Source of the DNA: Rhizaria sp. SCN 62-66
Taxonomy: Eukaryota
Direction of reading: 5' to 3'
Length of the DNA: 64,000 nt
NCBI GenBank assembly: GCA_001724265.1
Contig: MEDY01000025.1
Coordinates: 1 to 64,000, forward strand
Below are positions 9,679 through 59,655 of the stretch, piece by piece; position 1 is the stretch's first letter; every line of letters starts with the position of its first letter. Below the pieces are notes generated by a model that saw nothing but the letters and a program-made list of their open reading frames with translations, was not told the DNA's origin and searched no databases. The translations under genes and the position numbers were made by a program.

Positions 9679-10583
9679 ATGCAAGATCCTCAGCTTCGAC
9701 AGAAGTAGGTACGTTATTATTTCCGTCCCAGCTTTGTTTTGTTCTCTCATCTCTCAACTGATTCCTAAGTGAAGCTGCTTGAAGACTTGACATCCCTACT
9801 CTTTTATTGAGCTCATGTGTTTGCCAGCTTTGTTTTGACATATTACAACTGTAGATGCTGATCAACCGCGTTGCAGCATCCGCCGAGCGACTGAACTTTA
9901 CACTTGCAGCTATCAACAACGAGGTTGCCGTACGTACTCATAAGTCAAACAGAGTTCAATAATAAGCGAACATCAAACATGACGAGCTAAAAGAACACTT
10001 GTTGATGCTACAACTGATGACTGAGCGACTTGCGTTCATTTTATGCTAAGAATACTCCACATGTGACAAGAAATGCGACTAATAACTCATGACACACGAC
10101 GACACTTAATCGCAACTCTCCAACACCCACACTCGCCATCAGTCTGACTTGTCTCTTACGCCGTCTTTTATTCCTTTCATTCTCTCCGCATAGGCACTCG
10201 CTGCGCACCCCGCGACGGGTGCCGGTGCCGCTGCGGGCGCCGTCTGGCGCGGCTACAGCAAGAGAGTCGCGGCCGCGCTCTCGGCGCTGCCACCGCCGGT
10301 GGCCTCCGAGGCCGCCGCCGCCAACGCCGCCGCGGCCGCGGCCGCCGCTGAGGCCACCAACGCCGAGGCCGAGGCCGAGCAGAGGCTGCGGGCGGCCGAG
10401 GCGGCCCGCTTCCGCTCGCTGCGCACGGCTGCCGCGGCGGCGGCGGCGGAGGCTGAGGCCGAGGCCGAGGCTGAGGCGGGGGCTGGCAAGGCGGCCAGCG
10501 GCCGGGGCCGCAAAAGCACACTGTATAACCCTACGGTAGCGTCCAAGAGCAGGGCCGCGTCGCGCTCGCGCACGCGCGCGTGA
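9679..10583 (+). CDS. DAD4: DASH/Dam1 kinetochore complex subunit, Dad4/Dad1-like. Exons 9679-9708, 9855-9929 and 10194-10583, with an in-frame TAG at codon 10
   Basis: Spliced translation MQDPQLRQK*|MLINRVAASAERLNFTLAAINNEVA|ALAAH..GAVWRGYSKRVAAALSA aligns by eye, with no gap over the first ~34 residues, to the Dad4 pattern MENP....Q..I/LL.RI..NV.RLNES...LN.EL...(W/C)..Y...V...L. Both introns are GTACGT...TAG, phase 0. Stop TGA. Confidence 0.7.
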
Positions 10584-11431
10584 GGAGTAAATAGTTTACT
10601 CGCAGCTCCCGGTTAAAGCGCAGTTAAGCATGACTGCGTTGACGTTATATAGACATAGTGAATGTGCCATGCCATGACCAGGGCCTAGCAATAAGGCGGG
10701 TATAGAGCGCCGATATGCGTGCTCGTGCGATATTTGATAAAGTTGCCGCTCAGAAAATTGCATAATTCATACAATAGTCACAGTTTCAACTCGGGTAAAG
10801 CTTGTTAACAACGACTTATATCAGCCGAAAGCGCTCTCGTCCATTCACCACTGGCGCACGGCCGCCAGCCACACCTCGCCCCTCGAGTCTCGGCCTGTTT
10901 GTTCAAGACGCGTGTGATAGCTATGCTCCGATAACAACAGTTCCGAGACTTGATCTGAATGCATTTGTACGATTAATTATATTTCCCTTTTTTATGTTAT
11001 TCCAGATGTCATATATCTCTGGATCAATCGCTCTTTTCATCCGCGCTCTCACACTCTTGTTCCTGTCCCTGCCACACACCTTCGTTCCCCCGATCCACAC
11101 TTTCGCCGTGCACTTCTTTCGTCCGCAAAGTGCGCCAGCACAGTGTTTTCGTTGCATTTATTGACAAATTTGAACTTCACGCTTCCCCGGCGACGCATTC
11201 AGCAGCAGCACCTGTGACGGCAGCCACGACCAGGATTCATCCAGCTCGAGAGTGCCAGTGGCAGTAGCAGCAGCAGCAGCAGCAGCAGCGCTGCCTGCGT
11301 TGAGCTCGCTCTCGCTCTGGCCAGCAACCAAGGGCGTTAACTATTAACGCGAACGTGCTCTTGCTCTCTCAGCAGTCTCGAAAGCCAAGGACGAAGTCTC
11401 ACAACCGCAGTTGCGGCAGTGGAGAGGCGCT

Positions 11432-14400
11432 ATGTCGCACCATCGTCCGATCAACTCACACAAGCAGCAGGAGCAGCAGGGCCAGCGCCACCAACAGCAG
11501 GGGCAGCAGCAGTACTCTTAGCAGCACCAGCTAGGGCGACAACAACAGCAGCTCTTGTTTTCCCACAGCAGCACTCGCTTACACGCCGATGCTCGCGCAA
11601 GCAACTCTGCGACTGCGCCTGCAACTACTGACGCCGATGCGGATGCCGCCGCGGCTGTGACGGCGGCTGCGATGCAAGCGTCGCTCTCTCGCATTGCCGC
11701 AGCCCTCGCTCACACAACAACATACGCGCCACCTGCCCCTGCCCCTGCCCCTACCCCCGCTGCCCCTCCTGCTGCCTCCGTGGCCGCCGCGCTAGCCGCC
11801 GCCGTCGCCGCCGCCGCCGCGCCCTTGTCTGCCACGTCATCCACCTCCGCAGCGTCCCAGTCTGCTGCGGCGCTGCTGACTGCGGTGCGCTCTGCCCAGG
11901 CCGCCGCGGCCGCCAACAGGCTGAGGGCCTGGCTCCGGGCCGCGACGGCCGCCGCGGTCGCCGAGGCCGAGGCCGCCGCCGCGGAGGCCAAGGCCAAGGC
12001 TGAGGCCGAGGCTGCCGCCAGTAACAATCATAACAGCGAGGGGGACGACGACGACGACGAATATGAAAGCGGCCTAACTTTGCTGCCGGGCTTCCGGCGG
12101 CTGAGCACCCCTTTCGGCCTCAGTGCTTCGGCGCTGGCGGCGGCGAAAGGCGGCGCCGGGAGCGGCTTAGCTTACCTGCTGCCCTCGCAACGGCGCCTGT
12201 TATCACTAGCGCAGGCGCAGGCGCTGGAGCGGGCCGATGCCGCCAAGGCCGCCCGGGAGGCGGCCGAGGCGGAGGCGGGGGCGGCGGCGGTCGCGGCGGC
12301 GGTTGCGGAGGCCAAGGCCGAGGCCGAGGCCGAGGCGGGGGTCGTTACTACTGATGGCCCTTCACATGTGAGTGCTGTCAAGCCTAAGACTGAGGCTGAG
12401 ACGAAGGCCAAAGCCAAGGCCAAGTTGTTGTCTCTGAGCAGCAGCAGCGACAGCGACACCAGCAGCACCAGCAGCAGCAGCAGCAGCGACAGCAGCGACA
12501 GCAGCGACAGCGACTCAAGCTCCAGCTCTAGCTCTAGCTCTAGCTCCAGTTCTAGCAGTAGCGACACTGACACTGACAGCAGCAGCAGCAGCAGTGACAG
12601 CGAGAGTGATGCTGAGGCGAGCAGTAGGTTTGAGCACAAGACCAAGCGTTTCTGTCCCTTGCCAAGCAAACCAGTGACGGCGGCACTCACTGCTGCCAAG
12701 GCCAAAGCGAAGACTGTGTTCAAGGCGAAAGATAAGCCGCGTGACATGGAAGTTAGGCCGCGTCTGTCCGAGCGCTTTTTGCCGACAACACGTGCGCACA
12801 TGGTACTGCTGCTGCAACAACAGCAACATCAGGACGAGCTCCAGCAGCAGCAGGGATTGCTCGGCCACTGCCACGTCTGCTTACAGTCCTTTGCGGCCTG
12901 CGCGCAGTCGCTCGCACTCGCCGCCGCCGCGGCCGCCGCAGCCGCTGCTGCTGCTGCTGCCGCCAATGGCCCGCAGCCGCAATTGCAGCCGCAGCCAGAG
13001 GTGCCGGAGCCGTGCGTGCAGGCGCTGCACTCGCGGTCGCGGTGGGCGCAGGCGCAAGCACGGCTGGTGCTAAGGCTGGGGCCGCTCAAGGCGAAGAAAC
13101 AGCAACTGCAACAGCAGTTGCAGCAGCGGAGTGACTGTGATGTGAGCAAGAGCGATAACAGTGTCCATGACAGTAACAATGACACTGATGCTGCTGCTGC
13201 TGGCTCTGCATCTGTTGTTTCTTTTGATGTAAGTTCCCCTGACCCTGACTCGGGCTTCGCTTACCGCCCCCGCGGCACTGTCGTCACGCTCAAGAAGGCA
13301 CTTCCATCAGGACGCGACGCCCTTACACCAACTGCAGCAACAAACACTGCTGCTACGACTGCTGTGCCCGCACCTGCTGCTCCAGCGATGACTGACCCTG
13401 ACTCCAGTACTTCGGCTGCTGCTGCTGCTGCCGCTGCGGCGGCGGCGGCGGCGGCGACTGATCCTAACGAGCTCTTCCTGCGGTCGCTGTCTGAGCGCCA
13501 CGGCCCCGTGTGTGTGGCCGCCGCCTGGGCCCAACTGGACGCGGCGGTGGGCGATCCCGCCAGGAGGGCCGCGCTCTCGGGGGCACTTACACGGCTAAGT
13601 ACCCGGGCCCCGGGCGCCGACGGGACGCCGCAGTGGTTTTACTCTCGGCAAATGCGGACTCCCATCGGCACGCAGTCCATCCGTCCTCAGTACTCGCAGT
13701 CACGGGCACGGTCACATTCGCAGCCTCAGCCTCAACAGCAAGAGCTTGAGTCTGTTGAGCCTGAGGCTGAGCAGGAGCAAGAGCAGGAGCAGGAGCAGGA
13801 GCGATACTGGGCCTACTCGGCCAACATCGACTACAGCAACACAACTGCCATCGCCAGCGCTACCGCCGCGGACGCGGGCGCAGCCGCTACCGCCGCGGAC
13901 GCGGGCGCAGCCGCTGCCGCCGCCCCTGCTTTGCAGCTGCAGTCAGCCCAGTGGCAGCTTCAGTCCCAGTCCCAGTCGCAGTCCCAGTCCCAGTCTCAGT
14001 CCCAGTCCCAGTCCCAGTCGTTTTTCACCGCTGTGCGCGGCTGCCGCAGCGACGAGCGGCGCCTCTGCGAGTGGGCTAAGGGGATACTTACACATGGGGT
14101 ACCGGCGCAAAATGCGCTCACACAACTCAGCACGACTGCGACCGACAGCTGCAGCAACAGTAATCGTGACGCCAGGGATGCTGCGACTGCCAGTGCGAAT
14201 GCTGCTGCGAATCCTGCTGCCAATGTCACTGCTAGGGCCAATGCTCGTGTGAGTTCCAATGCCAATGCGCGTTCGAGTGCTGCCAATGATCGCCGTTTCC
14301 CCACGTGCCCCTTCGTGCCCCCGCCCTTTCCCAGGCAGGGACTTGCGGCTGCGTCTAAGGGGCACTTAGACGGCGCTGACCGGGGGTACTTAGACGCGTC

Positions 14401-16358
14401 TAAGTGGGGCAGCGAGTGGGCCCGTGATATGTGGGCTCTGGCACCACAACCACCGCAGTTGACACCAGCAACAGCAACAGCAGCAGACACCGCGGCAACA
14501 GAAGCTCGTGTTTTTTCCACTCCCATGGGTGATGATGATGGCGACAGAGATGTGACCAATCGTAGCACTGCTCCTGTCGTCGACGCTGCAAACGCAGATT
14601 CTAGCGCAAGGACGAGCGCGAGTGGGGGTGACGCGCCGTCCTCTGAGCTCATCGAAGCCTTCTACGCCTCCGTCACCGCCCCCGCCCCCGTCGCATTCGT
14701 CCCGGCCACCGCGTATGTAAGTATCCCTGACCGTCTGAGTGCCCCGGCTCGCGACAGCGCCGGCGACAACGGGAGTGATGGCTGCAGCAGCAGTGGCGGA
14801 GACTGGGGCAGCGAGAGCGAGAGCGACGACGAGAGTGCCAGCGCCAGCGCCAGCGCCAGTGCCAGCGCCAGTGAAAGCGAGAGCGAGATTGCTATCTGTT
14901 TTGATACTAGTGGCATTAACGCAGAGTCCGATACCGATACCGAGACTGTGACTGTGCGCTCTCCCAGCTGCACGCGCTTTGCCTCAGCGGGCCCTCTGTT
15001 GCGCATCAAACAACTCAAGCAGAAACTCGAGCGATCAGCCCCCACAGCAACAGCTGCAACGGCTGCGACGACGGCGGCGACAGCACCGACTGCAACTGCG
15101 ACTCAAGAGCTAGAGCTGGAGCCAGTGCTGCTGCAGCCGCAAACGGCCTCAGACTCCGACTCCGAAGCCGACTCTGAGTCTCCATCGCGGTCGCAGCCTC
15201 ACTCCCAGTCTCAGCCCGCCCGCGTGTTGCTGGGCCAGGGCCCGTGGCCGGCGACCTACGGCAGCGTCCCGGGCGCCGCCCGCGCCGCGCCCGTGGCCGT
15301 GCTGAGGGCCACCCACCACGCCTGGGGCGCCGCGCGCGGCCGCAGGGTCAGGACCCGGGCCGCGGCGTCGGCGCTGCTGCTGCGACTGCAGCAACAGCTG
15401 GGACAGCACCAACAGCAGCAGCCGCAGTCGCATTTTCAGCAGCGGCAACAGCAGCAGCAGCAGCGGTTATTGCAGTCGCGTGTGCAGGCATTGCGGTCGC
15501 GGTTGCTGTCGCAGTCGCTCGAGGCCCAAGTGCTGACTATCACCAGCCAAAACAACGCGAGCATGGGCTACGGCGCAACCGCAGGCAATTACGCCTCTGA
15601 TGCTTTCAATACTGGTCATGTTACCGGTAGTATGATGAGCCCCAATAGCACTCACATGAGCGATAACGGCGCGCTTCCCAGCTCTGTGTCGACCAACAAC
15701 AGCAACTCCAACGCAACTCCCACGCACGTAACTGCCAATCTCAACAACAGCAGCAGTAGTGGCTCAACTGCTTTGAGCAGTAGCAGCGCTAGTCAAATTA
15801 ACAGCAGCAGCAGCGGCAGTGGCGGCGGCGGCCACCAGGGCGGCCGCCGCAGCCGCGCGCTGCCGACGCTGACGTCCATCAGCGCCCTCTCCCATCTCAC
15901 AGTTACGACTACCGCCACCGGCGCCGCGCTGCCCGCGGGGGCGGCCGCCGGCGCTGGCGCGGGCGCAGGGGCCGCAGGTGGCGGCGGCGGCGGCGGGGGG
16001 GCGACTGGGGGGGTGCTGACGTTTCCTGAGCTGCTGCTGCTGCAGCATCCTAAGCTGGCGCCGCCGCCGCCGCCGGCCGCGTTGTCTCCGCAGCAACAAC
16101 AGCAGCAGCTCCAGCAGTGGCTGCAACTGTGGCAGCAGCAGGCGAGCCCTACCAGCAGCGTCTCCGGCCACAGCCTTAGCAGCCTCAATGGCCTCAGCCT
16201 CGGCAGCGGCGGCAGCAGCAGCGGCGGCAGCAGCGGCGGCGGCGACTGCTTTGACGAAGACGATAACAACGATAACGATACTGAGAGTGACGGCGAGAAC
16301 GCCGGCGCCCGCACGCCCACCAACGCCGGCACGAGCACCAACATCAACGCTAATGCCC

Positions 16359-16402
<44 letters not shown>

Positions 16403-17501
16403 GGCTCTGGCGGCCGCGGCTATCCGAGCACGGCCACTGCCCCGATCATCAACACGACGCACTACCTCACTGCCCTCAACGCCGTCAACGCGAGCTCGAG
16501 CATTAGCAACAACAGCAGCAGCAGCGCGAGCGATAGTAACGCTGGCTCTGGCTCTAGCTCTGGCTCCGGCGCTAGCAGTGGCAGTGGCAGTGGCAGTGCG
16601 ATGGCGCTAAGTGCAGGGTTCGCGAGCTTCGTGACGAGCACGAGCAGTAGCGAGCTGCAGCAGCTACAGCGGCGCATCTGCTTCCGACGCTCGCTGATTC
16701 ACGACTGGGGCGTCTTCGCGCTTGAGGCGATCCCCCCCGCTTCCTTCATAGTCGAGTACCTCGGCGAGTACCTCCGCAAGCCCGTCGCGGACATCCGCGA
16801 GAAGCGCTACCAGGTACGGGATTACGAATTCAATTGACTTTTGAGAATGTATATATTGATATAATGAATCAAAATGCACATCAATCGTGTAATTTACTGC
16901 TTTCTATATTATACTATAATTAAATCTCTCATCACCCCGGTATACCCCTATTTTGTATCTGTTTAATCACTAATCACCGAAGGCGGCCGGTGTGGACAGC
17001 TCGTACCTGTTCGCAATCGACGGCTGGAGCGGCTGGGGCGGCTTTGGCGGCGGCGGACGCCTCGACAGCGGCGGCGGCTGGGTCATCGACGCGACCGTGC
17101 GCGGCAACATTGCGCGCTTCATCAACCACTCGTGCGCGCCTAACTGCAACGCGTTCGTGGTCCAGACCGGCGGCCGGCCGCGCATCGTCATTTGCTCCAC
17201 TAGGTATGCACTCAAACAATGGATGGCTGCTTGGCGATAATAATATGTGACTATTAACATGAATTTGTGTCACAACATGCGCACATAAGTTTAGTGTATT
17301 ATTCTTAAGTTTTGTCGCGATCGGTCAATATCTTGCTCACTATATCTCACGTTTCATGTACCACATTGCTGTTTCTTTGCTATTGCGCGTAGGGCGATTG
17401 CGAAAGGCGAAGAGATCGTGTACGACTACCAGTTCGAGAGCGAGGAGGAGAAGATTCCGTGTCGCTGTGGCGCCAGCACCTGCCGTGGCACTCTCAACTA
17501 A
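11432..17501 (+). CDS. SET1: SET1/COMPASS-type histone H3K4 methyltransferase. Exons 11432(?)-16813, 16983-17203 and 17393-17501
   Basis: C-terminal SET domain [17 protein letters not shown]...[55 protein letters not shown].|..[10 protein letters not shown] plus post-[19 protein letters not shown]. Start is uncertain: ATG 11432 needs TAG readthrough at 11519, otherwise ATG 11672. Confidence 0.85.
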
Positions 17502-18232
17502 CCGCAACCAACACGTGCAAGACATACGACGTCTCAGTGCATTTGCAGTACGTGCATGGGACACGTTAACAAGCGTCTAAGGAGAGACGAAACATATAAC
17601 GAAGATACCTAGATTAAGATTAATATAACCTAATGAATATAATGTGATACAGTGCAACATGTCTTTAGAATGAGGTCGGTAGAGACTTGTTTGTTTCAGG
17701 ATAACATTACTGTCTGTGAATACAAAGCGCTACTTTGAGTACGTACATACGGACGTAATATGAATATGTGTCTTTGTATCAATCATAGTTATAAAACAGT
17801 GTTTTGTTGTTATTGTAATTTTTTTCTAATATGTTGTTATTTTGCATTTTGTGTGTTGTAATATTACTATTTTGTTCTGGTGTTTACATCGTATAATCTA
17901 AGTCATACCAAGTTGCGTTACGACGAACAAAGAGACCTGCTGGACAGTGATGACGGCAAAGGCAATGTTAAAAAGATAAGATGCAATGAGATTGCAGCTA
18001 TTGCTGTCGCTGTTGCTTGAGATCAGCAGCTTCCTGTTGCTGCGGCATGAGTATCATGCCATGAAACTGCCTCAGAAACTAATCTCTGTCATCCATGGTA
18101 GATGGAAGTTAACTAACCCTCCATCCTACGATCAGCCGGTCCCCCTTCCTTCTCTGTTCGCGTCAGAGAGAGAACGCACGCCGAACGCAACGCGCGTCCC
18201 CCCCTTAGATTGTAAGTACTTGGATCCCGCAC

Positions 18233-19051
18233 TTAGATCTCGACCTTGGTCTCCTCGATGCCGTCCTTGGTAACAACCTTGATGGTCCAGGTGTCGAGGT
18301 TGAGCAGGAAGCGCGTGCGCAGCTCGCGGAAGGCCTTGCGCAGCAGCTCCTTGCCCTCCTCGAGCGTCATGTCCTTGTGCCAGAAACGGTCGAAGAGCGA
18401 GAGAGTGAAGTTGGACGCGTGGCCCTGGGAGGAGTACTTGACGGGCTGCATCGAGGCCAGGTAGTCCATGTAGTACAGCGCGGGGCCATCGACCTCGTCC
18501 ACGCCCGCCAGCAGAATGTTCACCTGGATTGGGTGCGCAGCGGAACAAAGCGCAAGACATGAACGACAAGGTTAGAGACAGAAAAGAGAGAGAGTCGTTG
18601 TAAGATTTGTCGGATCATAAAACACGCATGTTGATCGGGAAGATGACTTCAGAGCAAAACAATCTTTGGATATAGCAAAACAAAAGCAAAACGACATTTA
18701 GCTAAATCATAATTGTTTTATCAACGTCTTGTTGTGGGCATGAACAGTGTGGCGTACCTGCTTGGGGTTGGAGCGGAGCGCCTCTGCGAGCTGCTCGCGC
18801 GTGAAGTTGGCGATGGCCTTGGTCGAGAGCGTGTGGCCCGCGCGCAGCTCGTTGAGCGCCACGTTAGAGCGAATGTACTCGCCGAAGTTCATGCGGTCGC
18901 CCTGCGGGCCCGTCATGGCCATAAGCGTGGTGTTGTTGACCGCGATCGACTTGTCTTCGTCCTTGGTGTAGATCATGATGCTGCGGCCCGCGACGGCGTC
19001 GGTCGCCACCAGCACGTAGTCCTTGCCCACAATGCCGAACGAGGTGTCCAT
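18233..19051 (-). CDS. PSMB2: 20S proteasome subunit beta-4 (PSMB2/Pre1). Exons 19051-18758 and 18523-18233
   Basis: MDTSFGIVGKDYVLVATD..RSIM...DEDK..GDRMNFGEYIRSNVAL..ANFTREQLAEALRS.PKQ|VNILLAGVD..GPALYYMDYLAS..LSLFDRFW. GTACGC...CAG intron, stop TAA. Confidence 0.95.
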
Positions 19052-19762: not shown

Positions 19763-20527
19763 TCAATCGAGGTCGAAGCCGGGGGGGAAGACGCCGGTCT
19801 GCAAGATCCCCTCAAGCACCGCGATCTCTTGCGGGGTCGTAGCGGCCTCGAACTTGGCCAGCAGCTTTACCTTCTGCTCCTTCGTCAGCTTCACCTTCTT
19901 CTTCGGCGCCGCAACAGCAGCCGCGGTGTCAGAATCCGCAGCAGCCGCAGTGGCAGCGGGGGCAGCGGCGTCAGCAGCAGCGGCAGAGGGGGCATTGACG
20001 ATAGCGAACGACGCGAGCGCTGCCCCCGCCTTAAGTTTGGCCGCCACGGCCGCGGCCTGCTGCCGCTCGGCGGGCGTCACGGGCGCGCAGTCGAGCACGG
20101 CCAGGTTGGGCAGCAGCGCCGCCACCAGCACGCGGTAGTTGGCCACCGTCTTGGTCACGGGGTTGCCGAGGAGCAGGAGAGTGGTGACCGTGGGCAGCGA
20201 TGCCAGCGGGGCAAGGTCCGCGGCGGCCGCCAGGTGGTTGTGCGACAGCACGAGCGTCTGCAGCGCCGGCAGCGCGGCGCCCAGCTCGGGTGCGAGCGCC
20301 ACGATGCGGTTGCCACCCAACAGCAGCGTCACCAGCGTGGGGAGGCGGGGGAAGTTCTCTACCTTGACGATCTCATTCTCGCTCAGGTCGATCGCCTCGT
20401 AGAGGTCGTTGGTGATGCCGAGGTTCTCGATGAGCGGGATCTGGTGCCCGCGCAACCCCAGCTCGCGCTGCTTCAGCGGGTTCAGGTACGACGGCGCCGT
20501 GCGCAGCAGCTCGGGAGTCAGCCGCAT
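19763..20527 (-). CDS. SNRPA1: U2 snRNP protein A' (LRR)
   Basis: MRLTPELL..APSYLNPLKQRELGLRGHQIPLIENLG.T.D.YEAIDLSENEI.KVENFPRL..L.TLLL..NRI..GNPV....NYR. Stop TGA. Confidence 0.95.
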   Translation of the reverse strand: MRLTPELLRTAPSYLNPLKQRELGLRGHQIPLIENLGITNDLYEAIDLSENEIVKVENFPRLPTLVTLLLGGNRIVALAPELGAALPALQTLVLSHNHLAAAADLAPLASLPTVTTLLLLGNPVTKTVANYRVLVAALLPNLAVLDCAPVTPAERQQAAAVAAKLKAGAALASFAIVNAPSAAAADAAAPAATAAAADSDTAAAVAAPKKKVKLTKEQKVKLLAKFEAATTPQEIAVLEGILQTGVFPPGFDLD

Positions 20528-20994
20528 CTGCGCCAGAGATTAACAGACGGCAGCAACAAAGCAAGAATTACATGGCAAAGGAGGCAATGTGAGAGAATAC
20601 GAAAATAGAATAAAGATAAATATGTTATAATATTGTGTGGGGTAGTGCTAGAATTTGATTTGACGTTCGGATCATGCCGCACGAGAGGAAACTTTTAGCC
20701 AAGTTGCGGCCGTTTGCCGTTCGCCACTGGGCTCTCGCTTGACGTCCTCAAGCTGGTCACTTTCACATCAGAATCTGCTCATATATCGCCTTTTCCTTGA
20801 TATATTTTGGTTTTTCGCACTTAAATTGCTTTTTAGTGCATTTATCTATTAACAAATCTCTATTATACTCTTTTTGTCTTGCACTAGAGCAGTTTTTGCG
20901 TCAGCTCCACGAAGACCCTTCTCCAAGCTTTGCCTCCCACCAACACCGCTAGCACGCCACTACCCCCTTCCTTCGCTCTGCCCGCGCGCGCCCG

Positions 20995-23091
20995 ATGGCC
21001 AAGAGCCGGTTCGAGTATGTCAAGGAGTTCGAGCAGGACGACAAGCTGCTGCCCGAGTGCTGGATCGTCGTCCGCGTCGACGGCAAGCAGTTCAGGCCGT
21101 ACGTTCCCCGCGCAAGACACGGGATTTCACCGCATATATCACCTCCAATCAAACAAATGTTTGGCTTCGCGGGTTCATCGATGTGTTTTTTGTTATGACG
21201 TATTAATTTTTTACACATGCTCATATTCTTTCTCAGAACCATGCTTCTACTTGACAACACACATCTCACTCCTTTCTCTCTGCGCTCTCTGTCCCCCTCT
21301 GTTGCCTCCTCGCTGGCCGCAGCTTCACCGACGCGCACGGTTACCTGAAGCCCGTGGACGACCGCGGCACGAAGCTGATGAACCGGTGCGCTGCCGAAGT
21401 GATGCGGCAGTGTCCCGACGTCATCCTCGCGCTCGGGGCCAGCGACTAGTTCTCGTTTGTGCTCAAACGGTCCTCCGTGCTCTTCTCGCGCCGCGCGGGC
21501 AAGATCGCGACGTTTCTGGCCTCAGCGTTTACAGCCGCATTTGTCTACCTCTGGCCGCAGTACTTCGGGCCCCGCTCGGCGCGGCTGTGCGCTGAATACC
21601 ACTCTGCCGGGTCGATCACTGGCAAACTGGGCAAGCTGGCTGCGCCGGGGAGAGACAAAGCGGCAGAGCGAGTCAAAGCTGTGGCGAGTGATGACATCAG
21701 TGGCGAGGGCGATTTCGCGGGCTGTACTGAAGCATCTGCAGCTGATGCGACTCCGACGGCAGCGGAGGCTAAGGCTGAGGCTGTGGCAGCTGCTGCAGCG
21801 GCAGAGGAGGAGGAAGAGGCAGCTGTGTCCGCCGCCGCGGCCCGGGCCGCCAGGAGGGCCCAGCCAAGCGACAACGGCTCTGTGTCCACGACGAGGCCCT
21901 GCCGCGCGCTGCCCGCCGCCGCCGCGAAGCGCCTTGTTTCCGCCGCCGCCGCTGTGGCAGCCGCGAACAACGTCAAGTCAACCGACGACTTGAACAACAA
22001 CAGTGCTGCTGCTGCTGCTGCTGCTGTTCCGAGTGCGGCCCGCCCGCTCTCCCTGCCCGCGCTGACGGACTTGCGGGGCACGCGCCTGCGCTTTCCCGCG
22101 CCGAGCTTCGACGGGCGCGCCGTCTGCTACCCCACCGACCGCGCGCTAAGGGACTACCTGTCCTGGCGGCAGGCCGACTGTACGTCCCGATGGCGCTACT
22201 TAGAATGAATACCACACTCCTTCTTATAACTGCTCTTTATTCAATCCCGATGTAATACTTCTATTTTTTTCTGGAAAAATATATATATTTATGTCCTTTT
22301 GTTGCAATGATGCGATGCCATATTCTATCTTCATAACTCTCTCCTCACCTTGTCGCTTTCTTTCCATTGGCTTGTACGTACGCTTTGACTCCGCTCTTGC
22401 ACATGTGAACTTCTCGTCTTGCCACCACTCAGACCACATCAACACAATGTACAACACGGCCTTCTGGGCGCTGGTCCAGCTCAAGGGCCTCTCCCCGCGC
22501 GCCGCTGAGCAAACGTTGACCCCGACCAACAGCGAGGGGAAGCACGAGGTGCTGTTCTCACTGGGGATCAACTACGCGAAGCTGCCGGCCGTCTACCGCA
22601 AGGGCTCGCTGCTCATCTGGTCGGACGACAACAAAACCAGCACTGGCAGCGTTAAGGCGAGTCACGGCAATGGCAGCGGCAGCGCGACGCAGTTGAACGC
22701 CCTGAACGCGACTGCCGGCGGTGGCGAGTCGAACGCTGCTGCTGCTGCTGCGGCTACTGATGGTGGTGGTGGTGGTGGTGGCAGCGGTAAGCTGAGTGCA
22801 GCTGCTGCTGACGCGGACGCCGACTGCGAGGGCGAAGGCTGGGGCTGGAGCGACGCTGAGTGCGATCTCGACGCGTACGGGCAGGAGATCAGCTCCAGTG
22901 TAAGTACCCCCTTAGACGCCGGCAAGCAGCAGGGCCAGCAGCACCAGCAGCAGCAGCACTTAGACGATGTAAGTGCGACTGTAAAGCGCCCTCGCCACGC
23001 CAACAATCACAATAACAACGGCGACAGCAACGACGGCGACGACGACGACGACGCAAGCCTCACCAGCTCAAGCCACGCGAACCTGAACCTG

Positions 23092-23128
<37 letters not shown>

Positions 23129-23424
23129 GCAGCAGCAGCAGCATGAATGCGGCTGCGAGTGCCGGTGCGCCGCGCAAAGTGAAGCGCGGCCGCCGGCAGA
23201 TCGTGGTGCTGCACTGCGACTTGATCGGCGACGCCTTTTGGCAGCAGCGGCCGTGGTTGCTGCCGTATGTGTCGCCCAAAGACAGGGCCAAGGCCGAGTA
23301 CAAGGACCGGAAAAAGAAGGAAAAGGGCGCTACTAACGCTGCTGCCGCTACCGCGCAACAGCAGCAGCAACAGCAGCAAGGGCAGGACAGTGATCGTGAG
23401 ACTAGCGTTGCACACTGCCTCTAA
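20995..23424 (+). CDS. THG1: tRNA(His) guanylyltransferase Thg1 (~650 aa). Exons 20995-21098, 21323-22179 and 22433-23424, with an in-frame TAG at codon 77
   Basis: [28 protein letters not shown]...[75 protein letters not shown]. Both introns are GTACGT...CAG. Stop TAA. Confidence 0.93.
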
Positions 23425-23806
23425 ATGGAACTGTTTGTTATCTAGACTGAACTTTATAGCTACGCATCGTATTTAAATCTTTATACAGAATGAGAGCTGT
23501 ATTTGATCGTATATTAAACATTGTTTTATCTTTGAAAATAGGAGCAAAATTAGATGTTAGACTCGTATTGCGTCTTGCGAGCAGTCTCCCCAAGGGTGGC
23601 TGCGCAGCGCGAACGACGAGGGGAAAGAACTTGAAAACCGGAAAAATGAATATTAAAAACCACGTGCACTTTACCAAAAAGCGCACTCACATATAAAATC
23701 ATGAACAAAAGACCACAAACACACCGAAACAGAATCAGAAATCGCAACAACAACAACAACAACGACACACATTCAGCGATCATCTAGTTTCTCTACCGCT
23801 TTCAGC

Positions 23807-25261
23807 TCACTGCTGCTGCGGCTCCTGCTGCAGAGGCAGAGGGACAGGAAACGACAGAGGCAGCGTGGCCGGCGCGTCATACTGGACCTCCCTGGCGAGC
23901 GGGAACGGCAGCAGCCTCGGCACCGCGGCCTGGTACTTTGAGTACGTGGGGTACTTCGACAGCGTGATGCGCTCAGTCAGGTTCGTCGACGCGTTGAACA
24001 GCAAAGTTAAGCCGCACGCGCCGGCCAGAGGCAACAGCACAGCGAGCACGGCGTTGACGCCGCTGGCGTTACCATTAAATGTGAGTAGCGGCGACTGCGC
24101 AACTAAGTGGGGCAGCACAGCAGCGGCTTGACTTACGACGACGTCTAAGGGATACGACAAGCTACTCACAAAGCTACTACTACTGCTGCTGCTGCTGAAG
24201 AGGGCGCTAGCGATCGATGGCAGGACGGCAAAGAGCGCGAAGCTCCACCACAGCGAGACCTCGGCCGCGAAGTTTGGGTGCCGTGAGTGGGCGAACAGAG
24301 AACTCGTGCAGTAACCGTGCCGCAGGTCCTCGAGCGAGGCGACGCCGGACCGCGCGGCCGCGGCGGCGATCGCGCGCGCGCTGAGGGCGTTGACGACCAC
24401 GGCCGCGTCCGCGTTGTCGATGTCGATCGCGTCTGCTGCGTCGTCAGCAGCTGCTGCAGCGCCGCTGCGGTTGTTGTTGTTGTTGCTGCTGCTGGCGCCA
24501 TTGTGGGAGTCGGCGGGGGTGCTCGCTTTGTTTGGACTGGCGGGCAGGTGGGACGTCAGCGTGAGGGCCAGCGCAGTGCGGTAGAGATCGCGGTAGCGGT
24601 AGAAGCGCCACTGCTGCTCGTCGGCAGCCGTTTCGATCGCAAAGCACGTCAGGAAACACACTGCCGCGACTCCGTCGCTGAAAGTCAACCCGCCGACGAA
24701 GAGGGTGAACAGAGACCAGACGGCCGAGAGCGCGCTTGTGTCCGCGGCGGACGCGGCCAGCGCGGTGGAGACGGCGGCTGCGGCGTGCGTGGGCGAGCGC
24801 AGCGCGTAGTACGCGGGAAAAGCGAGCAGAAACAGGAGAACGTTCTGGACGAAAGCAGTGAAGACGAAGTTGAGCAGCTGGTAAAGCACCTCGTTGTTGA
24901 TCTCAGCGCGGACAAAGACCCAACGGTAGTCCTCCGCGTGGCGCGCGTAGCCACCCTTGCGCGCGTAGTTGTATGTGAGGCGGCAGCCCCACAGCGCGGC
25001 CAGCAGCGCCATCGCAGTCAGCCGCGGGTGGAGGGCGAGGAAGGCGGCGAGGCTCAGCTCACGGGTGAGCAGGGACGCCGCGCGGAGCTCGAACAGGCCC
25101 GCAAAGACAAAGTACCAGACGTAGAAGACGGGCAGCAGGCTCCACAGGCGGTCGACAATGCTGTAGTTGCGCAGGGCGATCGAGAGCACCCAGCAGGATA
25201 GCGCTGAGGCGAGCATCAGACCGACGACGCCGGTCAAAACGGGGTCACCGAAATCTAGCAT
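23807..25261 (-). CDS. DUF1295 / steroid 5-alpha-reductase-like multi-pass membrane protein
   Basis: NYSIVDRLWSLLP, LWGCRLTYNYARKGGY...EDYRW, ETAADEQQWRF, LFAHSRHPNFAAE, STNLTERITLSKYPTY..YQ. Likely ATG at 25261, stop TGA. Confidence 0.88.
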   Translation of the reverse strand: MLDFGDPVLTGVVGLMLASALSCWVLSIALRNYSIVDRLWSLLPVFYVWYFVFAGLFELRAASLLTRELSLAAFLALHPRLTAMALLAALWGCRLTYNYARKGGYARHAEDYRWVFVRAEINNEVLYQLLNFVFTAFVQNVLLFLLAFPAYYALRSPTHAAAAVSTALAASAADTSALSAVWSLFTLFVGGLTFSDGVAAVCFLTCFAIETAADEQQWRFYRYRDLYRTALALTLTSHLPASPNKASTPADSHNGASSSNNNNNRSGAAAAADDAADAIDIDNADAAVVVNALSARAIAAAAARSGVASLEDLRHGYCTSSLFAHSRHPNFAAEVSLWWSFALFAVLPSIASALFSSSSSSSSFVSSLSYPLDVVVSQAAAVLPHLVAQSPLLTFNGNASGVNAVLAVLLPLAGACGLTLLFNASTNLTERITLSKYPTYSKYQAAVPRLLPFPLAREVQYDAPATLPLSFPVPLPLQQEPQQQ

Positions 25262-26241
25262 CTGCGGCGTGAAAGTGCATTGTAGCGGGAAAATATTAAT
25301 AAGATAAGCATGTAAGCTTGAAGTTTTACTTGGGCAAACGCCCTTCAATTGCAAGCCACGATGCAGAATTGTCTACAAGCAACCAGCTAATATCTTGACC
25401 TGGGCGCGTGTGGCCAAAAGTGGACGGGAAAACAGCATAAATCCATTTTATTGTATTTCATATTGTGACTTTACCAAAATTATCATATGAATAAGATGAG
25501 CGGCTGTGACTTCTATTAGAAATCACTACTCCATTTGCTTAAATCTTCTTTTAGTGTGAGATACATATGATTTTGCGGTTTGACCACGGTTACAAGCTTC
25601 TAACGGACAGCCGGGTCGCGAGGTGGTCGCCGCAAGTTTGAATTAGCACCAAACATAATCCATCAAAACCGCGGACTCATAAGCCCAGACAATGATATTT
25701 GTGTAGTATATGATGTATTGTTTCTATTTCTTTCTGTCCACACTCTCCCAAACGGTCTCTTGCCGTTCTATCCTTTTCCTTCTGTCACGTGTCTCGCCAC
25801 ATCTTTCTCGTCACCTTCTCTTTGTTTCCATCCCTGCACTTTACAAGCAACGTTGACGGAACTTTAACCCTTGAATTCACGATTTTCATGCTTTATCCTG
25901 GTCATCAATCTGCTTCGTATTTCACTCACTCTTGCGCTTCCCCGCTTTCTATCCCCTCGTCTTCGTCGTCACCCCCCGCAGTCAAGCTCCCCAACCAACT
26001 CACTTGTGTATCTCCCGAGAGCTTCTCCCCGCTCCCTACGCACACTTGTAACCCCTGTTGTCTGCCTTTCACCAGCTACAACACCTCCCATAACCCTCAC
26101 ATCTTTACAGTCGAGCATTAAACTCCTCTGTTGTTGAACCCTTCCCTTCCGTTAGCTAGCTGGTCGTCCCGCGTTTGCGCTCCCTCTCTTTCACAGCCCC
26201 AGTCTCCCACCCTCCACCAGTACCAGCACCCTCCGCACACC

Positions 26242-27690
26242 ATGCAGCGCACCCCGTTACTCCTGGCGGTGCAGAAGGGCCAGAAGCAGGAAGTGGCCCG
26301 GCTCCTGCGGCGCAAGGTCTCCGTCTCCGAGGCAGACAGCGACGGCGTCACTCCCAGCATGGAGGCCGCGGCCAACAACCACATCTCGATCCTGTCGACG
26401 CTGCTCGACGCCAAGGCCGACCTCAACGTTGTTAACCGCCTGGGCCGCTCCGCGCTCATCGAGGGCGCGGCGCGCGGGCACGCCGCCATCGTGCTGCGCC
26501 TATGCCGCGCGCGGCCCATTCTCGACTACGCCAACACGCACCACCCGCTGCGTCTCACCGCGCTGCACGAGGCCGCCTCGCGCGGCCACGACGGCGTCGT
26601 CTTCTGGCTCTGCGAGGCGCGCGCCGACATCAACAAGACCAACGCGTGGGGCGACACGCCTCTTATCATGGCGGCGCACAACAACAGGTTGGTGACTGTG
26701 CAGATGCTCGTGGCGCAGCGGGCCAACACCGACGTGCGCGGCGACGGGCGCCAATCGGCGCTCGAGACGGCGCTCTCGCAGGGCCACATGCGCGTCGCGG
26801 CGTTTCTGTCTGACCCGCGCACTAAGGACGCGGCCTACCTGAACGAGCTCTACAGCAAGTTCAAGGCCGCGCAGAAGGACGTGCTGCAGGACGAGGTCAA
26901 CTACGACGCGTCGCTGTCGTCGCGCAAGGTGCCAGTGCCGGGACCCGTGCCCCAAGAGTACCCCGAGTGGGAGGAGGCCCTCGAGCCTGTCGCCATCAGC
27001 GGCAACGGCTCTGCGTCCTCGTCGTCGTCGTCGTCGTCGTCGTCAGATGCTGCGGCGGCGGCGGCGCTGTTCCAGAACACGCTCAAGCTGACCCCCAACA
27101 CGCCCGTGTCGGTCCGCCGCGTGCCGCTAGCGACACTGCCCGAGTTCGGGGCCTGCCAGTGGATCGCGACCGAGCCCACGCGCACGAGCCGGCTGTCGCG
27201 CGAGGAAAAGATCTCCCACTTCGACGTCATCATCCACAGCAAGGAGACGCTCTACCCCGTCCTCACGCTGAACGGCAACGGCAGCTGGTCCTACGCCGGC
27301 GACGCGCTCTCGGGCGAGCTGCACGGCACCTTCGAGCTCTTCCACATCATCACGCGCTCGTCCCTGGCTGCACTCGAACGCGCTAAGGGTCCTGCGCCCG
27401 CGCTGGAGGCCACGGCGTCGCCCTTCTTCTACCTGGTCCGCCTCACCACCACGCCCAGCGAGGAGCAGTTCGCTGAGGGCGGCGAGCGGGCGCCGGTGCA
27501 GGTCGTCGGCTTTGTGCTAGGCCGCCAGATCGTGCTCGGCCGCCTTGTCATGGAGATGAGCGAGCTCGCGGTGCCCTGGTGGCTCATCAACAACACGCCC
27601 GCCGCCGCCATTGCCCACAGCAGCGGCGGCGGCAGCAGCGGCAGCAGCAGTGCCAGCGCCAGCAGTGGCAGTGCGGCGGCCAGCAACTAA
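26242..27690 (+). CDS. Ankyrin-repeat protein with an unidentified C-terminal domain
   Basis: About six ankyrin repeats (TPLLLAV, GVTPSMEAA, GRSALIEGA, TALHEAA..GH, GDTPLIMAA, SALETAL..GH). Likely ATG at 26242, stop TAA. Confidence 0.88.
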   Translation: MQRTPLLLAVQKGQKQEVARLLRRKVSVSEADSDGVTPSMEAAANNHISILSTLLDAKADLNVVNRLGRSALIEGAARGHAAIVLRLCRARPILDYANTHHPLRLTALHEAASRGHDGVVFWLCEARADINKTNAWGDTPLIMAAHNNRLVTVQMLVAQRANTDVRGDGRQSALETALSQGHMRVAAFLSDPRTKDAAYLNELYSKFKAAQKDVLQDEVNYDASLSSRKVPVPGPVPQEYPEWEEALEPVAISGNGSASSSSSSSSSSDAAAAAALFQNTLKLTPNTPVSVRRVPLATLPEFGACQWIATEPTRTSRLSREEKISHFDVIIHSKETLYPVLTLNGNGSWSYAGDALSGELHGTFELFHIITRSSLAALERAKGPAPALEATASPFFYLVRLTTTPSEEQFAEGGERAPVQVVGFVLGRQIVLGRLVMEMSELAVPWWLINNTPAAAIAHSSGGGSSGSSSASASSGSAAASN

Positions 27691-28720
27691 GTGGCTTGAC
27701 TTAAAGCCAAGCCGCAAGATGTAAGTATAGAGTAGATAACGTATAATCGCTCTCTACGTTTTCTTGCTTTCTTGCTTTAAGCTAAGAAAAGAAAGAGAAA
27801 ACAAGTCTCGAGTCTTGTTGCGAGTCTCTATTGGTTTGTTGTTGTGCTGCTAAGTTGCTGTTGTTGTTCGTTTTTTCTAGTTTTGTTTTTTGTTTTCTGT
27901 CTGATTTTGTAACAGGGATGTGTGTTTTCGAATTGTAATAGTGTTCGTAGTTGTTAGGAGTATTCTTGATGTTAAAGCGTATGATATTCTTTTAGTAACC
28001 TCTGATGTTTGTTTTTTTGTTTGTTTGGCATATAGTGTCACAGGAAATACAAGTATTCTGATTTACATGTACATGTAACTCTTAAGTGAAAGCGTAATCA
28101 CAGCATTGCCAGCTTAACCTAGAACACCATAAGTTTGCGGTTGCGACACCAAAAGAAGGGAATCCTCATCATGTGTATGTAGTACATCTGTCATGCACGC
28201 TTGCAAAACAATATCAAGGTTCAGTGTGATAATATATGTATGGTGGAGCGTATTGTCAATCAGTCAAACAAGAATTGTTCTCGGCGCTCTTAGTCGAGTC
28301 GCACATCAACGCAATGCGCCGCCAATCATACTCGTATCATGAAGACATACTGAAACACAAACCAAAGCAAAACAATATTAAACTTCTCACAAGGTAAATA
28401 ATCGAACAAGCTATCAAGCATAAAATATGAAATGCCAGTCCGACGCCCAGCCAGCCGCCCTCCCTGGCGGTCACATGTCACCACAATCCGAGAAACTTGA
28501 GGGCAACTAACAGTTCCTCCCTGGTTTTTCTTGTTCAACGTCGTCAATGTACGTGTATGTTTGTGTATTCACTCAATCTTAGCGAGCTACCGTTCATTCG
28601 AGGACTCGCAATATCATCTTTGTCGGCCCTCTATCTAAATCTTAGACCAGCCAATGTGAAGTGAAACTACTCACTGGTTACTCAAATGTATGGACTCTGG
28701 ACTCTGCGCGCACGCTAACT

Positions 28721-30190
28721 TCACCCGCGCGCGAAGCTGCCGGTACCGTTAGCGGCCTCCGCGGCCGCCGCGGCCGCCGCGGCCTCGCCTGCGCGCGAGT
28801 ACTCACTCGGATCCGTGAAGCCCGACTGGTACTGGATCTGGAGCATGGCCATGCGGCGCACGCGCCAGAGCAGGTAGCCGACGCCGACGAGCAGGATTGC
28901 GAGGAAGACGAAGACGACGGCGAGCGCGGCGCAGGTCCCGTCGCAGCTGGTGCCGCCGCCAACGTTGTACACGTCGGCCGAGGCGGACTGGGACACGCAG
29001 CGCGGGCCGTGCCACCTGTCGTGGCAGAAGCACCGGCTGGCCTTGAGGTCCGTGTCGTAGGAACAAATGCCGTTGCCGCCGCAGGGGCCATCGCCGCTCG
29101 TGAGGCCGCGCGCAAAGGCAGATTTGACGGAGTTCTTCTGTGCAGTCTCAGCAGTCTCAGTCTCAGTCTCAGTGTTGCTGTTGTTGTTGTTGATTTCACT
29201 CGCAGTGCTGAAGGGGTTGTTCACAACGGCGGAGGTGACGGAGGTACTTACACACTGTAAGGGGCAGGCGGCCGGGTGGTTGAACGTGGCCCTGTAGTTG
29301 CACTCGGTCGCCTCATCCACCCGCACCACGCCAGCGTCGGCCGCGCTCGAGCAGAGAAAGCGGACAGTGAAGCTGTACTTATCGAGCCCGCAGGTGGCGC
29401 CCGTGGGGTAGTATAAGTCCAGCCCGCCGCTGGGGTCGCTCGGGTTCACCAGGGACAGCTGCGGAGGCCGCGCAATGCGTGAGGCGTGAAAGCGAAGGAA
29501 ACGACAGCGGAGAAAGATAAAAAAGACAAAAGACGAGGTATAGACGTGAGTTTAAGACGTGATAAGATGTTTTTCAAGTAAAATATTTAAAAAGCATAAG
29601 AGACTTGAATATCACATAAAAGTTTTAAAACAGTCCTGAATCACGGAGATATATCTTTGGGAACGTACGGAAGTCTTGGGGTCGTTGTGCTTGCCGAGCG
29701 CGTGACACATGCCGACGGCCTTGATGAGCGAATAGGCGCCGGCCGTCTCGACGTCGCAGAGGTTGTCGGGCCGGATAGTGGCGCCGCAGACGTTGAAGTA
29801 GTACGTCTAGTTGAGCAGCGAGGGGTCGACGACAGTGTAGGACTGCCAGTCGGGCCTGCTGAGGGCGGACAGGTCGTAGCTCGTGCCCGAGGCCTTGCTC
29901 GTGAAGGTGCACTTGGACGTGTCCCACTCGTCGTCCGCCGCCGCGGCTTCCAAGTGCAGAGCCGTGAGCGCAGCGGGTGCGGGCACGGGGGACGCTGCAG
30001 CGCCGCGCGCAGAAGGCGCAGGCGCGGTGCGGGCGAGATCGGACGCGGCGCGCGACGCGGGGGGGGGCACAGCAGCGACGGCATGGGCGAGGGAGCTAAC
30101 GCTGGCGAGCACGAGCGAGAGAGCGAGGGCCAGCAGCGCGGGGCGCCGGCCGCCGCGGAAACACGGAGCGGGGGCGGCGAGGGGCGTCAT
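28721..30190 (-). CDS. Type I membrane protein with a mannose-6-phosphate receptor homology (MRH/ATG27-like) domain, an EGF-like domain and a TM helix. Exons 30190-29669 and 29458-28721, with an in-frame TAG at codon 128
   Basis: Signal peptide, then C.F.....YDLSAL..YTVVD...N*TYYFNVCG...C...C.ALG..|..GLDLYY..G.TC...FTVRFLC..E..ECNY...F.HPAACP, then CGGNGIC......CFC...W.GPRC and a hydrophobic TM helix. GTACGT...CAG phase-0 intron, stop TGA. Confidence 0.85.
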
Positions 30191-47167: not shown

Positions 47168-47169
47168 CC

Positions 47170-59621: not shown

Positions 59622-59655
<34 letters not shown>

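Follow-up and report, generated by a model that had tools for sequence, protein, structure and literature searches.

In-frame TAG codons in an uncultured wastewater eukaryote: a candidate genetic code with UAG as glutamate and UAA and UGA as stops

TAG codons lie in frame within otherwise intact genes of an uncultured eukaryote from wastewater/bioreactor metagenomes, the reading frames that they bound recur on several contigs, and no gene end in the DNA analysed is TAG. We consider the chances about evenly balanced that UAG is decoded as sense in this organism, most likely as glutamate. More tentatively, and with confidence somewhat short of even, we propose the exact code in which UAG would specify Glu while UAA and UGA would both remain stops, at an early stage of the change and in a possibly amoebozoan host.

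The window (the whole stretch of DNA analysed, 64 kb) comes from an intron-rich contig of ~60% GC. The source may be an amoebozoan, a placement taken from one protein, U2A', whose closest named match (single best named hit) is amoebozoan. Together with ~9 kb of tRNA loci, the window makes up the sequence read from the organism. Sequencing runs, of low depth (about 5-6x), were compared with it. Run X3, from a different study, shows only 3 differences in 19.9 kb, and run X4, a diverged strain, shows 68 counted differences in 19.9 kb, including seven T>G changes, five of them among those listed; the run differences used are the best-supported ones, with 32 further ones beyond those listed. X6 is the only run recorded as RNA, and X7 is labelled RNA and is probably DNA; their small shares are no evidence on habitat. 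A dispersed-repeat search of the window returned only low-complexity trinucleotide repeats. A codon-usage score for in-frame stops flanked by coding signal was non-discriminating: antisense frames of GC-rich genes scored equally well, and TAG, TGA and TAA all came up. All four TAG triplets named in an earlier note on this DNA are present (Table 1).

Table 1. Genes, in-frame TAG triplets and tRNA gene of the window
Feature	Position	Strand	Description	Basis
Small gene ('Dad4-like' in the earlier note)	9679-9708, 9855-9929, 10194-10583	+	3 exons, TGA end	Spliced model
TAG of small gene	9706..9708	+	Codon 10, final codon of exon 1, abuts GTACGT 5' splice site	Spliced model
SET1-type methyltransferase	11432..17501	+	Large exon to ~16.8 kb, then two small SET/post-SET exons; TAA 17499-17501	
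TAG of SET1	11519..11521	+	Q-rich 5' region, 29 codons past ATG 11432, in frame	
THG1 (tRNA-His guanylyltransferase)	20995-21098, 21323-22179, 22433-23424	+	3 exons, 651 codons, TAA end	Spliced model
TAG of THG1	21447..21449	+	In frame, codon 77, Glu of SDE motif	PDB and homolog alignments
MRH/CIMR-domain type I membrane receptor	30190-29669, 29458-28721	-	2 exons, 420 codons, TGA end	Spliced model
TAG of MRH receptor	29807..29809	-	In frame, codon 128, sole internal stop	Spliced model
tRNA-Gly(GCC)	47096..47169	+	Only tRNA gene of the window	ARAGORN; Rfam RF00005, 55.2 bits

THG1 gives the most informative site. In its spliced model, with GTACGT...AG introns, the TAG at codon 77 is the sole internal stop. 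The match to the Thg1 catalytic domain (Pfam PF04446, 3.2e-25) runs across this TAG and the C-terminal domain Thg1C (PF14413, 9.6e-23) is present as well, so that both Thg1 family domains are matched. Human THG1 (PDB 3otb, 4.7e-19) can be aligned gap-free (sdX fsfvlkr against sdE ysfvfkr), which sets the X of the TAG opposite E. All 10 of the aligned homologs have E in this column, as do the three PDB alignments listed, and within a 95-residue stretch THG1 keeps each of the 21 further columns that do not vary among the homologs; Glu is the only residue predicted to keep the enzyme active at codon 77. Homolog searches returned no close relatives: since the next best homolog has 48% identity and no shorter fragment spans codon 77, the codon of a sister species is unreadable there. 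ORFs opening at the first start codon past the TAG are present on three ENA contigs, one of 174 kb, as well as on that of the window, and public protein sets hold THG1 as fragments of 243-249 aa, cut by standard-code gene calling.

The second domain-spanning case is the MRH receptor. Its CIMR match (Pfam PF00878, 5.8e-8, 33.4 bits, cut-off 22.5) covers residues 88-176, TAG included, and it also matches CI-MPR chains in PDB (E = 0.0012), among which the TAG column is variable. A 127-aa ORF closed by the TAG is found on four contigs from JGI, Logan and ENA, and in public sets the protein is stored as this 127 aa fragment. The 174-kb contig, which bears the window's DUF1295 allele according to exact protein look-ups, is missing under the 127-aa ORF; this is uninformative, since gene callers choose different starts. 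X3 retains the TAG (one record). In X4, a + strand T>G at 29808 turns TAG into TCG (Ser) at 10.6 of 10.6 depth on two contigs, and the same change stands at 3 of 5 in X7. Because X4 has TCG there, the TAG is a young polymorphism of very recent origin. Among the differences listed, the exon with the TAG has four SNPs, all non-synonymous, plus one codon insertion, a pattern such as weak constraint or decay of the gene would leave.

The earlier note had placed the TAGs inside intact, correctly spliced genes, which the domain-spanning models bear out for THG1 and MRH, while the other two are ambiguous as coding. In the small gene, the frame of ATG 9679 continues through the TAG into the rest of the gene, and after splicing the TAG directly precedes the ATG opening exon 2. 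Exon 2 itself opens with ATG, and an in-frame reading of the TAG requires ATG 9679 to be the start; the standard code would give a nine-codon upstream ORF abutting the next ATG. The proposed Dad4 identity found no support, neither exon 2 (25 aa) nor the exon 3 ORF having a Dad4 match in Pfam, nor in PDB at E<=10; with these short exons queried unspliced, the negative is a weak one. In SET1, whose SET domain is split over three pieces, the TAG had been called possibly in frame. It is in frame with ATG 11432, although it may belong to the 5' leader instead, since the next in-frame ATG (11672) lies 50 codons downstream.

A recount of the 16 gene ends in the window agrees with the first tally: ten are TAA, six are TGA and none is TAG. 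SET1 and the proteasome subunit (PSMB2), which had been cited as evidence that UAA is a stop, do end in TAA, each just past a complete domain match. The 15,513 modelled codons contain three in-frame TAGs, no TAA, no TGA and no frameshift, and the rarity of TAG described for the long ORFs is real (0 in the 11,812 codons of the six longest); as a trinucleotide, TAG has 1002 occurrences in the window, close to the 1071 of TAA. Should TAG normally supply 15, 20 or 25% of stops, its absence from this small sample of 16 ends would have a probability of 0.074, 0.028 or 0.010, respectively. TAG accounts for ~62% of possible nonsense mutations in these GC3-rich genes, and for this reason it is not significant that all internal stops are TAG; GAG, by comparison, makes up only 13-21% of the codons one mutation from TAG here. 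Candidates for sense TAG thus comprise two domain-confirmed sites (THG1 and MRH) and two ambiguous ones in 16 genes. According to the spliced models all of them (2-4 sites) lie, as first described, within the first 130 codons of intron-containing genes and upstream of an intron. The bases after the four TAGs share no common context, being T, A and C in three and, in the fourth, G before and A after splicing.

The tRNA-Gly(GCC) gene was used as a probe for further loci of the same organism. In metagenome contigs it found five short contigs (one the window's own locus, two of the same locus), which consist nearly entirely of tRNA clusters and spacer and offer no genes of use. The tRNAs of loci L002-L005 are Gly-GCC, Glu-CTC, Asp-GTC, Arg-ACG, Gly-CCC and Arg-TCT. 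At least two of the organism's tRNA clusters carry a gene for tRNA-Glu(CUC). A tRNA(CUA) is absent from the window, as had been reported, and from the tRNAs of the four further loci. Probes from the 3' half of tRNA-Glu and from tRNA-Gly gave 0 matches in genome contigs, the tRNA-Glu probe gave 0 matches in viral contigs, and the 64 kb window holds no eRF1 gene.

From these observations we propose that UAG has probably lost its function in termination and is decoded as sense, at least in part, with glutamate the likeliest residue, while UAA and UGA still terminate. Translation would be carried by a tRNA with a CUA anticodon, which might have arisen through a single change in the anticodon of a tRNA-Glu(CUC) gene; since the organism has such a gene, the raw material for a one-step derivative exists. 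An eRF1 that recognises UAG poorly would act alongside the putative tRNA(CUA). Sense UAG would still be scarce (2-4 in about 15,500 codons), as expected shortly after a codon is freed, and new TAGs would arise by single mutations, silently from GAG, as at the THG1 site, or from other codons at tolerant positions, as from TCG in MRH. At this early stage UAG would be gone from gene ends, only beginning to reappear in genes, and still polymorphic between strains. The identity of the residue is suggested by one site, THG1 codon 77. There the best fit of Glu given in the earlier note stands; at MRH it does not, since a variable column and Ser in the diverged strain leave no consistent residue, and the small-gene and SET1 sites lack homologs for comparison. 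Pyrrolysine at UAG was considered and rejected as a misfit with the catalytic Glu of THG1, and we know of no such system in eukaryotes.

The case for sense UAG is weakened by the MRH TAG/TCG polymorphism, by the share of TAG among possible nonsense mutations and by the sparseness of sense TAG, and these points bear directly on a serious though rather doubtful alternative under the standard code. By that account the THG1 and MRH TAGs would be loss-of-function nonsense alleles of one strain, or would sit on most of a polyploid's copies; the remaining two TAGs would each end a short upstream ORF in a 5' leader, and the zero count of TAG ends would be chance or ordinary bias. Segregating nonsense alleles occur in natural populations, and the present cases resemble them in that a single premature TAG stands in a gene otherwise intact and is, at MRH, polymorphic with TCG in another strain, X7 having both. 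Exon-placed differences are eight non-synonymous against four synonymous (with the TAG/TCG site counted and 29470, intronic in the final model, excluded), which implies that selection on segregating variants is weak and makes one or two nonsense variants per 64 kb plausible. TAG is what ~62% of nonsense mutations would be expected to yield, the chance of 0/16 TAG ends rises to 0.07 if TAG normally makes 15% of stops, both ambiguous genes offer an ATG past the TAG (opening exon 2 of the small gene and 50 codons downstream in SET1), and some amoebozoans lack canonical Thg1 function. This account nevertheless calls for independent knock-outs of two of the 16 genes, both being the assembled allele on ~4 contigs, and the MRH TAG turns up as well in a run that differs in study and year. 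One of them would have to fall exactly on the codon for the catalytic Glu of THG1, an enzyme whose conservation is otherwise perfect, though GAG is only 13-21% of TAG-mutable codons; the missing TAG terminators are an additional requirement that it does not explain, and 15,513 codons without a frameshift or an in-frame TAA or TGA also speak against it.

An incomplete reassignment, in which UAG is an ambiguous or leaky stop with partial and perhaps position-dependent read-through through an inefficient suppressor tRNA or a weakened eRF1, would suit both the extreme rarity of sense TAG (0 in 11,812 long-ORF codons) and the position of the candidates, only 2-4 in number, in the first 130 codons upstream of an intron. 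We think it unlikely, given that no base context is shared after the four TAGs and that TAG is never a terminator here, whereas known ambiguous codes, in the available texts, keep the codon as a stop with context-dependent termination. Removal of the TAG at the RNA level is very improbable. Stop-loss editing in the fungal sexual stage is of the A-to-I type, UAG to UGG, so TAG is indeed the codon targeted by such editing and the genes are otherwise intact, but Trp cannot stand in for the catalytic Glu of THG1 and no form of editing known to us converts U to G. Nor can an unusual intron excise the THG1 or MRH TAG, because the alignments cross both without a gap. Run X6 has a depth of 0.16 in the THG1 bin and X7 has zero depth there, and neither has a listed piece spanning the THG1 or MRH TAG as RNA. 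Assembly or sequencing artefacts, which the depth of about 5-6x in the runs might invite and which the earlier note had named as a possible refutation, are the least credible explanation, hardly worth entertaining: identical stop-bounded ORFs are found on several contigs whose assemblies come from different sources (JGI, Logan and ENA), and X3, with its 3 differences in 19.9 kb, has the MRH TAG too.

Sense UAG as Glu would have partial counterparts elsewhere. Peritrich ciliates read UAR as Glu, and Oligohymenophorea sp. PL0344 is said to read UAA as Lys and UAG as Glu. The available text of PMC12153298 gives UAR = Glu and UGA = Trp for Blastocrithidia nonstop. UAG would be decoded here as Glu, as in peritrichs and Blastocrithidia; unlike in those, where UAA is sense, there are 0 in-frame TAA in 15,513 codons and TAA ends ten genes. 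PL0344 (PMC10553269) is among the nearest known systems, with UAG uncoupled from UAA as it would be here; UAA is also sense there, whereas here it closes 10 of the 16 genes and has no in-frame occurrence in the modelled codons.

Reassignment of UAG alone is described in the available text of PMC5304391 for Rhizaria sp. exLh (UAG = Leu; 384 sense UAG in 71 genes; ends 56 UAA, 15 UGA) and for Iotanema spirale (UAG = Gln; 204 sense UAG in 126 genes; ends 104 UAA, 15 UGA); for each, a tRNA(CUA) a single step removed from an ordinary tRNA is predicted, as in the mechanism proposed here. Going by that text, the present organism is like both in having in-frame UAG in conserved genes, here at the two domain-confirmed sites, with UAA and UGA as sole terminators, and differs in that the residue would be Glu, from one informative site, and in that sense UAG would be more than ten times sparser (2-4 sites in 16 genes). 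Phyllopharyngean ciliates mined from metagenome assemblies read UAG as Leu or Gln and prefer UAA as stop, and two of the genomes have suppressor tRNA genes (PMC11687900, available text). According to the same source they share with our case a metagenomic origin and the reassignment of UAG alone that is proposed here, but they have widespread sense UAG together with a suppressor tRNA, whereas no suppressor tRNA was found here in the window or the four loci. The contig is also unlike those of ciliates in its ~60% GC, its richness in introns and its nearest U2A' in an amoebozoan.

Gene calling with the standard code already cuts THG1 and MRH in public protein sets, which is a practical consequence. 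If the TAGs are nonsense alleles, they are ordinary population variation. Nuclear codes that split UAG from UAA are very few, and those found in print, in the texts available, assign Leu or Gln. If the proposed reading is true, a code in which UAG means Glu and UAA still terminates would be a variant not yet described and, should the placement by a single best named hit hold, perhaps the first nuclear code change in Amoebozoa. The capture of a freed codon is a step in code evolution that has mostly been inferred, not observed; sparse sense UAG together with the TAG/TCG polymorphism would then be a rare natural snapshot of it.

All four TAG triplets of the earlier note were found where it had placed them, at 21447-21449 (+, THG1), 29809-29807 (-, the MRH receptor), 9706-9708 (+, a small gene at 9679) and 11519-11521 (+, SET1). 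Its description of in-frame TAGs within intact genes stands for THG1 and the MRH receptor; the SET1 triplet may lie in a leader, and so perhaps may exon 1 of the gene at 9679. The THG1 and MRH triplets are not assembly or sequencing artefacts, an alternative that the note had raised. In the public protein collection, ORFs that open with the nearest start codon downstream of the THG1 TAG occur on the window's contig and on three ENA contigs (one of 174 kb), and a 127-amino-acid MRH ORF ending at the TAG occurs on four contigs (JGI, Logan and ENA). The sequencing run X3, from another study, agrees with the window at the MRH site, with three differences in 19.9 kb. As a DNA-level observation, the TAGs are real and reproducible.

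Among 15,513 modelled codons, the in-frame internal stops are three TAGs, with no TAA and no TGA. The spliced models of THG1 and the MRH receptor have one internal stop each, TAG at codons 77 and 128 respectively; the spliced model of a DNAJC11-like control gene with six exons translates with none. As an in-frame codon TAG is as rare as had been claimed, the six longest ORFs (11,812 codons) containing none, and as a bare trinucleotide it matches TAA in frequency across the window. Every remaining TAG in an ORF bounded by TAA or TGA is intronic, sits at a 3′ splice site or precedes the start codon. The earlier count of terminators was reproduced: 10 TAA, 6 TGA and no TAG (n = 16 gene ends).

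Features of the window and of related metagenome contigs (L002-L004)
Feature	Location	Strand	Description
Small gene at 9679	9679	+	3 exons, 165 codons; TAG codon 10 is the final codon of exon 1
Proteasome beta-subunit gene intron	18522-18755	-	X7 contig joins 18521 to 18756; GT..AG ends
U2 snRNP A' (U2A') protein	19766-20530	-	Best named match Balamuthia mandrillaris, 55% identity
THG1	20995-21098, 21323-22179, 22433-23424	+	651 codons, TAA end
MRH receptor	30190-29669, 29458-28721	-	420 codons, TGA end
tRNA-Gly(GCC)	47096-47169		Sole tRNA in window
Giant gene	47417-60630 (60630-60037, ~59867-56174, ~55994-47417)	-	Gene model; at least 4,360 codons, 3 exons
tRNA cluster	L002:309-1951		Intron-bearing Arg-TCT, Gly-GCC
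tRNA cluster	L003:279-1513		Asp-GTC, Gly-GCC, Glu-CTC, Arg-ACG
tRNA cluster	L004:238-2408		Gly-GCC, Glu-CTC, Asp-GTC, Gly-CCC
tRNA-Glu(CUC) gene	L003:1192-1264 and L004:422-494		

A Pfam Thg1 match (3.2e-25) covers the THG1 TAG, which in a gap-free alignment with human THG1 (3otb) stands opposite the Glu of the SDE motif. This column is E in 10 of 10 homologs in our alignment, where the window retains all 21 of the 21 otherwise invariant columns around the TAG; the conserved N-terminus is present in exon 1. Judged by its sequence, THG1 apart from codon 77 looks fully functional, and only Glu at that codon would preserve the SDE motif. The nearest homolog other than the window's own has 48% identity, and a search for shorter THG1 fragments spanning the TAG site found none. 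The gene is long compared with the homologs found (189-318 residues), and has long low-complexity inserts, rich in Ala, Asn and Gln, at 21600-22080 and 22600-23300.

The MRH TAG is also covered by a Pfam match (CIMR, 5.8e-8, above cut-off), but its position varies across CI-MPR repeats (aligned residues include V, K, Y and E) and is therefore uninformative on the residue. Glu, proposed as the best fit, draws its support from the THG1 site; at the MRH site a diverged strain (run X4) has Ser. X4 carries G rather than T at + strand 29808 (10.6 of 10.6 depth, two contigs), as does X7, a run labelled RNA but probably DNA, in 3 of 5 depth; with G, codon 128 is TCG. Since X4 and part of X7 have TCG, the MRH TAG is a young polymorphism. 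X4 shows 68 counted differences from the window in 19.9 kb; of its seven T>G differences, five are among the best-supported ones listed. Among the aligned pieces listed, none of RNA origin crosses the THG1 or the MRH TAG. All four single-base differences between X4 and the window in MRH exon 1 (29669-29840, -) are non-synonymous (A>T, A>S, stop>S, V>A), and the X4 sequence is one codon longer at 29762; given three non-synonymous differences beyond the TAG and this codon insertion, the exon is weakly constrained. Strain variation has a hot spot at 28030-28770, in the intergenic stretch separating the ankyrin and MRH genes, with 19 substitutions and 50 gap letters in X4, insertions of 13 and 20 bases included.

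The other two sites are ambiguous. The gene at 9679 had been labelled Dad4-like, a likeness that we presume; Pfam and PDB searches with its exons, which are short and were queried singly rather than as the spliced protein, gave no match and left the label unsupported. Because ATG opens exon 2, exon 1 could be a leader under the standard code, an awkward arrangement with a 9-codon upstream ORF abutting the main ATG. The SET1 TAG lies in Q-rich sequence between two successive in-frame ATGs, the first 29 codons upstream and the second 50 codons downstream, and may belong to the 5′ leader. SET1 has a genuine SET domain, split across three exons; the TAA terminator follows 22 residues past the domain's end, in agreement with the family-typical position noted earlier.

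As had also been noted, the window holds no tRNA with anticodon CUA. When its tRNA-Gly(GCC) was used as a probe, three more loci with tRNA genes of this organism were reached on metagenome contigs (L002-L004; L001 is the window's own locus, and L005 is the L003 locus at 99.75% identity). These carry Gly-GCC, Glu-CTC, Asp-GTC, Arg-ACG, Gly-CCC and an intron-bearing Arg-TCT, and no CUA anticodon; the clusters are tight. Scans of genome_contigs and viral_contigs for more sequence of the organism gave no match. The tRNA-Gly scores 55.2 bits in Rfam against a threshold of 29 (as a short stretch or in 'evalue' mode); the whole-window search at the gathering threshold reported nothing, the genuine tRNA being lost to speed filters.

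The window is eukaryotic; its exons are rich in GC and its introns in AT, and the 5′ splice site is highly uniform (GTACGT at the start of 7 of the 12 modelled introns, GTACG at 10). It is near-complete in the bioreactor and wastewater metagenome runs X1-X3 of 2015-2017 (shares 0.96-0.99), of which X1 may be the source, and is covered at a share of 0.63 by X4, a 2025 run of unrecorded origin. The proteasome beta-subunit intron, confirmed by the X7 contig, is the sole splice junction among the 15 of 492 joints listed. An identical U2A' protein occurs on seven public-assembly contigs, the longest of which (174,270 bases) belongs to the same organism. Its best named match gives only a hint of a possible amoebozoan origin; the matches that follow are fungi (~48% identity), and an Atlas search gave no taxonomic resolution for the organism. 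In the giant gene, DEAD and Helicase_C matches are weak and low-complexity tracts long; apparent gene ends at 56114 and 59941 were rejected as introns of this one gene.

Whether UAG is decoded as sense appears to us evenly balanced, and the narrower reading, in which UAG means Glu while UAA and UGA still terminate, has somewhat less than an even chance. UAG would have been freed as a terminator and then recaptured as a sense codon, in which case internal TAGs, a Glu site and the absence of TAG terminators would all be expected. The cost is that the codon would be very infrequent and its residue assigned from one site, THG1; the prior for stop-codon reassignment outside ciliates is low.

Under the standard code the THG1 and MRH TAGs would instead be nonsense alleles, a reading that we hold improbable to a degree but take seriously. 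That the MRH TAG is polymorphic speaks for it, as does base composition: with GC3 at 0.75 in these genes, 62-64% of single-base routes to stop yield TAG, so finding only TAG is no argument for a new code. Nonsense variants are plausible because purifying selection is weak, the strain differences placed in exons, among those listed, being 8 non-synonymous (TAG/TCG included) and 4 synonymous. Yet it would take two knock-outs in 16 genes, each being the allele assembled on about four contigs, with the MRH TAG also turning up in a run from a different study and year. One would have to strike the catalytic Glu codon of an otherwise fully conserved enzyme, when GAG makes up only 13-21% of the codons able to mutate to TAG; two further in-frame TAGs must by chance follow in-frame ATGs, and TAG must be missing from 16 terminators (P = 0.01-0.07 under the standard code). 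Leaky read-through, RNA-level repair or artefact jointly take the rest of the probability. The DNA-level data are consistent with a new variant code, and as yet they cannot be told apart from strain-specific nonsense alleles combined with a small-sample bias in stop codons.

The earlier note knew UAG as Glu only beside a reassigned UAA. Peritrichs combine UAG as Glu with a sense UAA, as reportedly does Oligohymenophorea sp. PL0344. For Blastocrithidia the source bears the claim out, UAG being Glu and UAA sense too, whereas the window would keep UAA as a stop (PMC12153298). UAG-only reassignments to Leu or Gln do exist, as had been stated: they are described for the rhizarian exLh (Leu) and Iotanema (Gln) (PMC5304391) and for Phyllopharyngea (PMC11687900). 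PMC5304391 gives 384 in-frame UAGs in 71 genes for exLh and 204 in 126 genes for Iotanema; with 2-4 in 16 genes, some very long, the window is much sparser. Among the papers ranked highest in our literature searches (the top 25 of 316, 15 of 118 and 15 of 63), we found no report of UAG as Glu with UAA as a stop, nor of one in Amoebozoa; if true, this assignment would be a new variant code.
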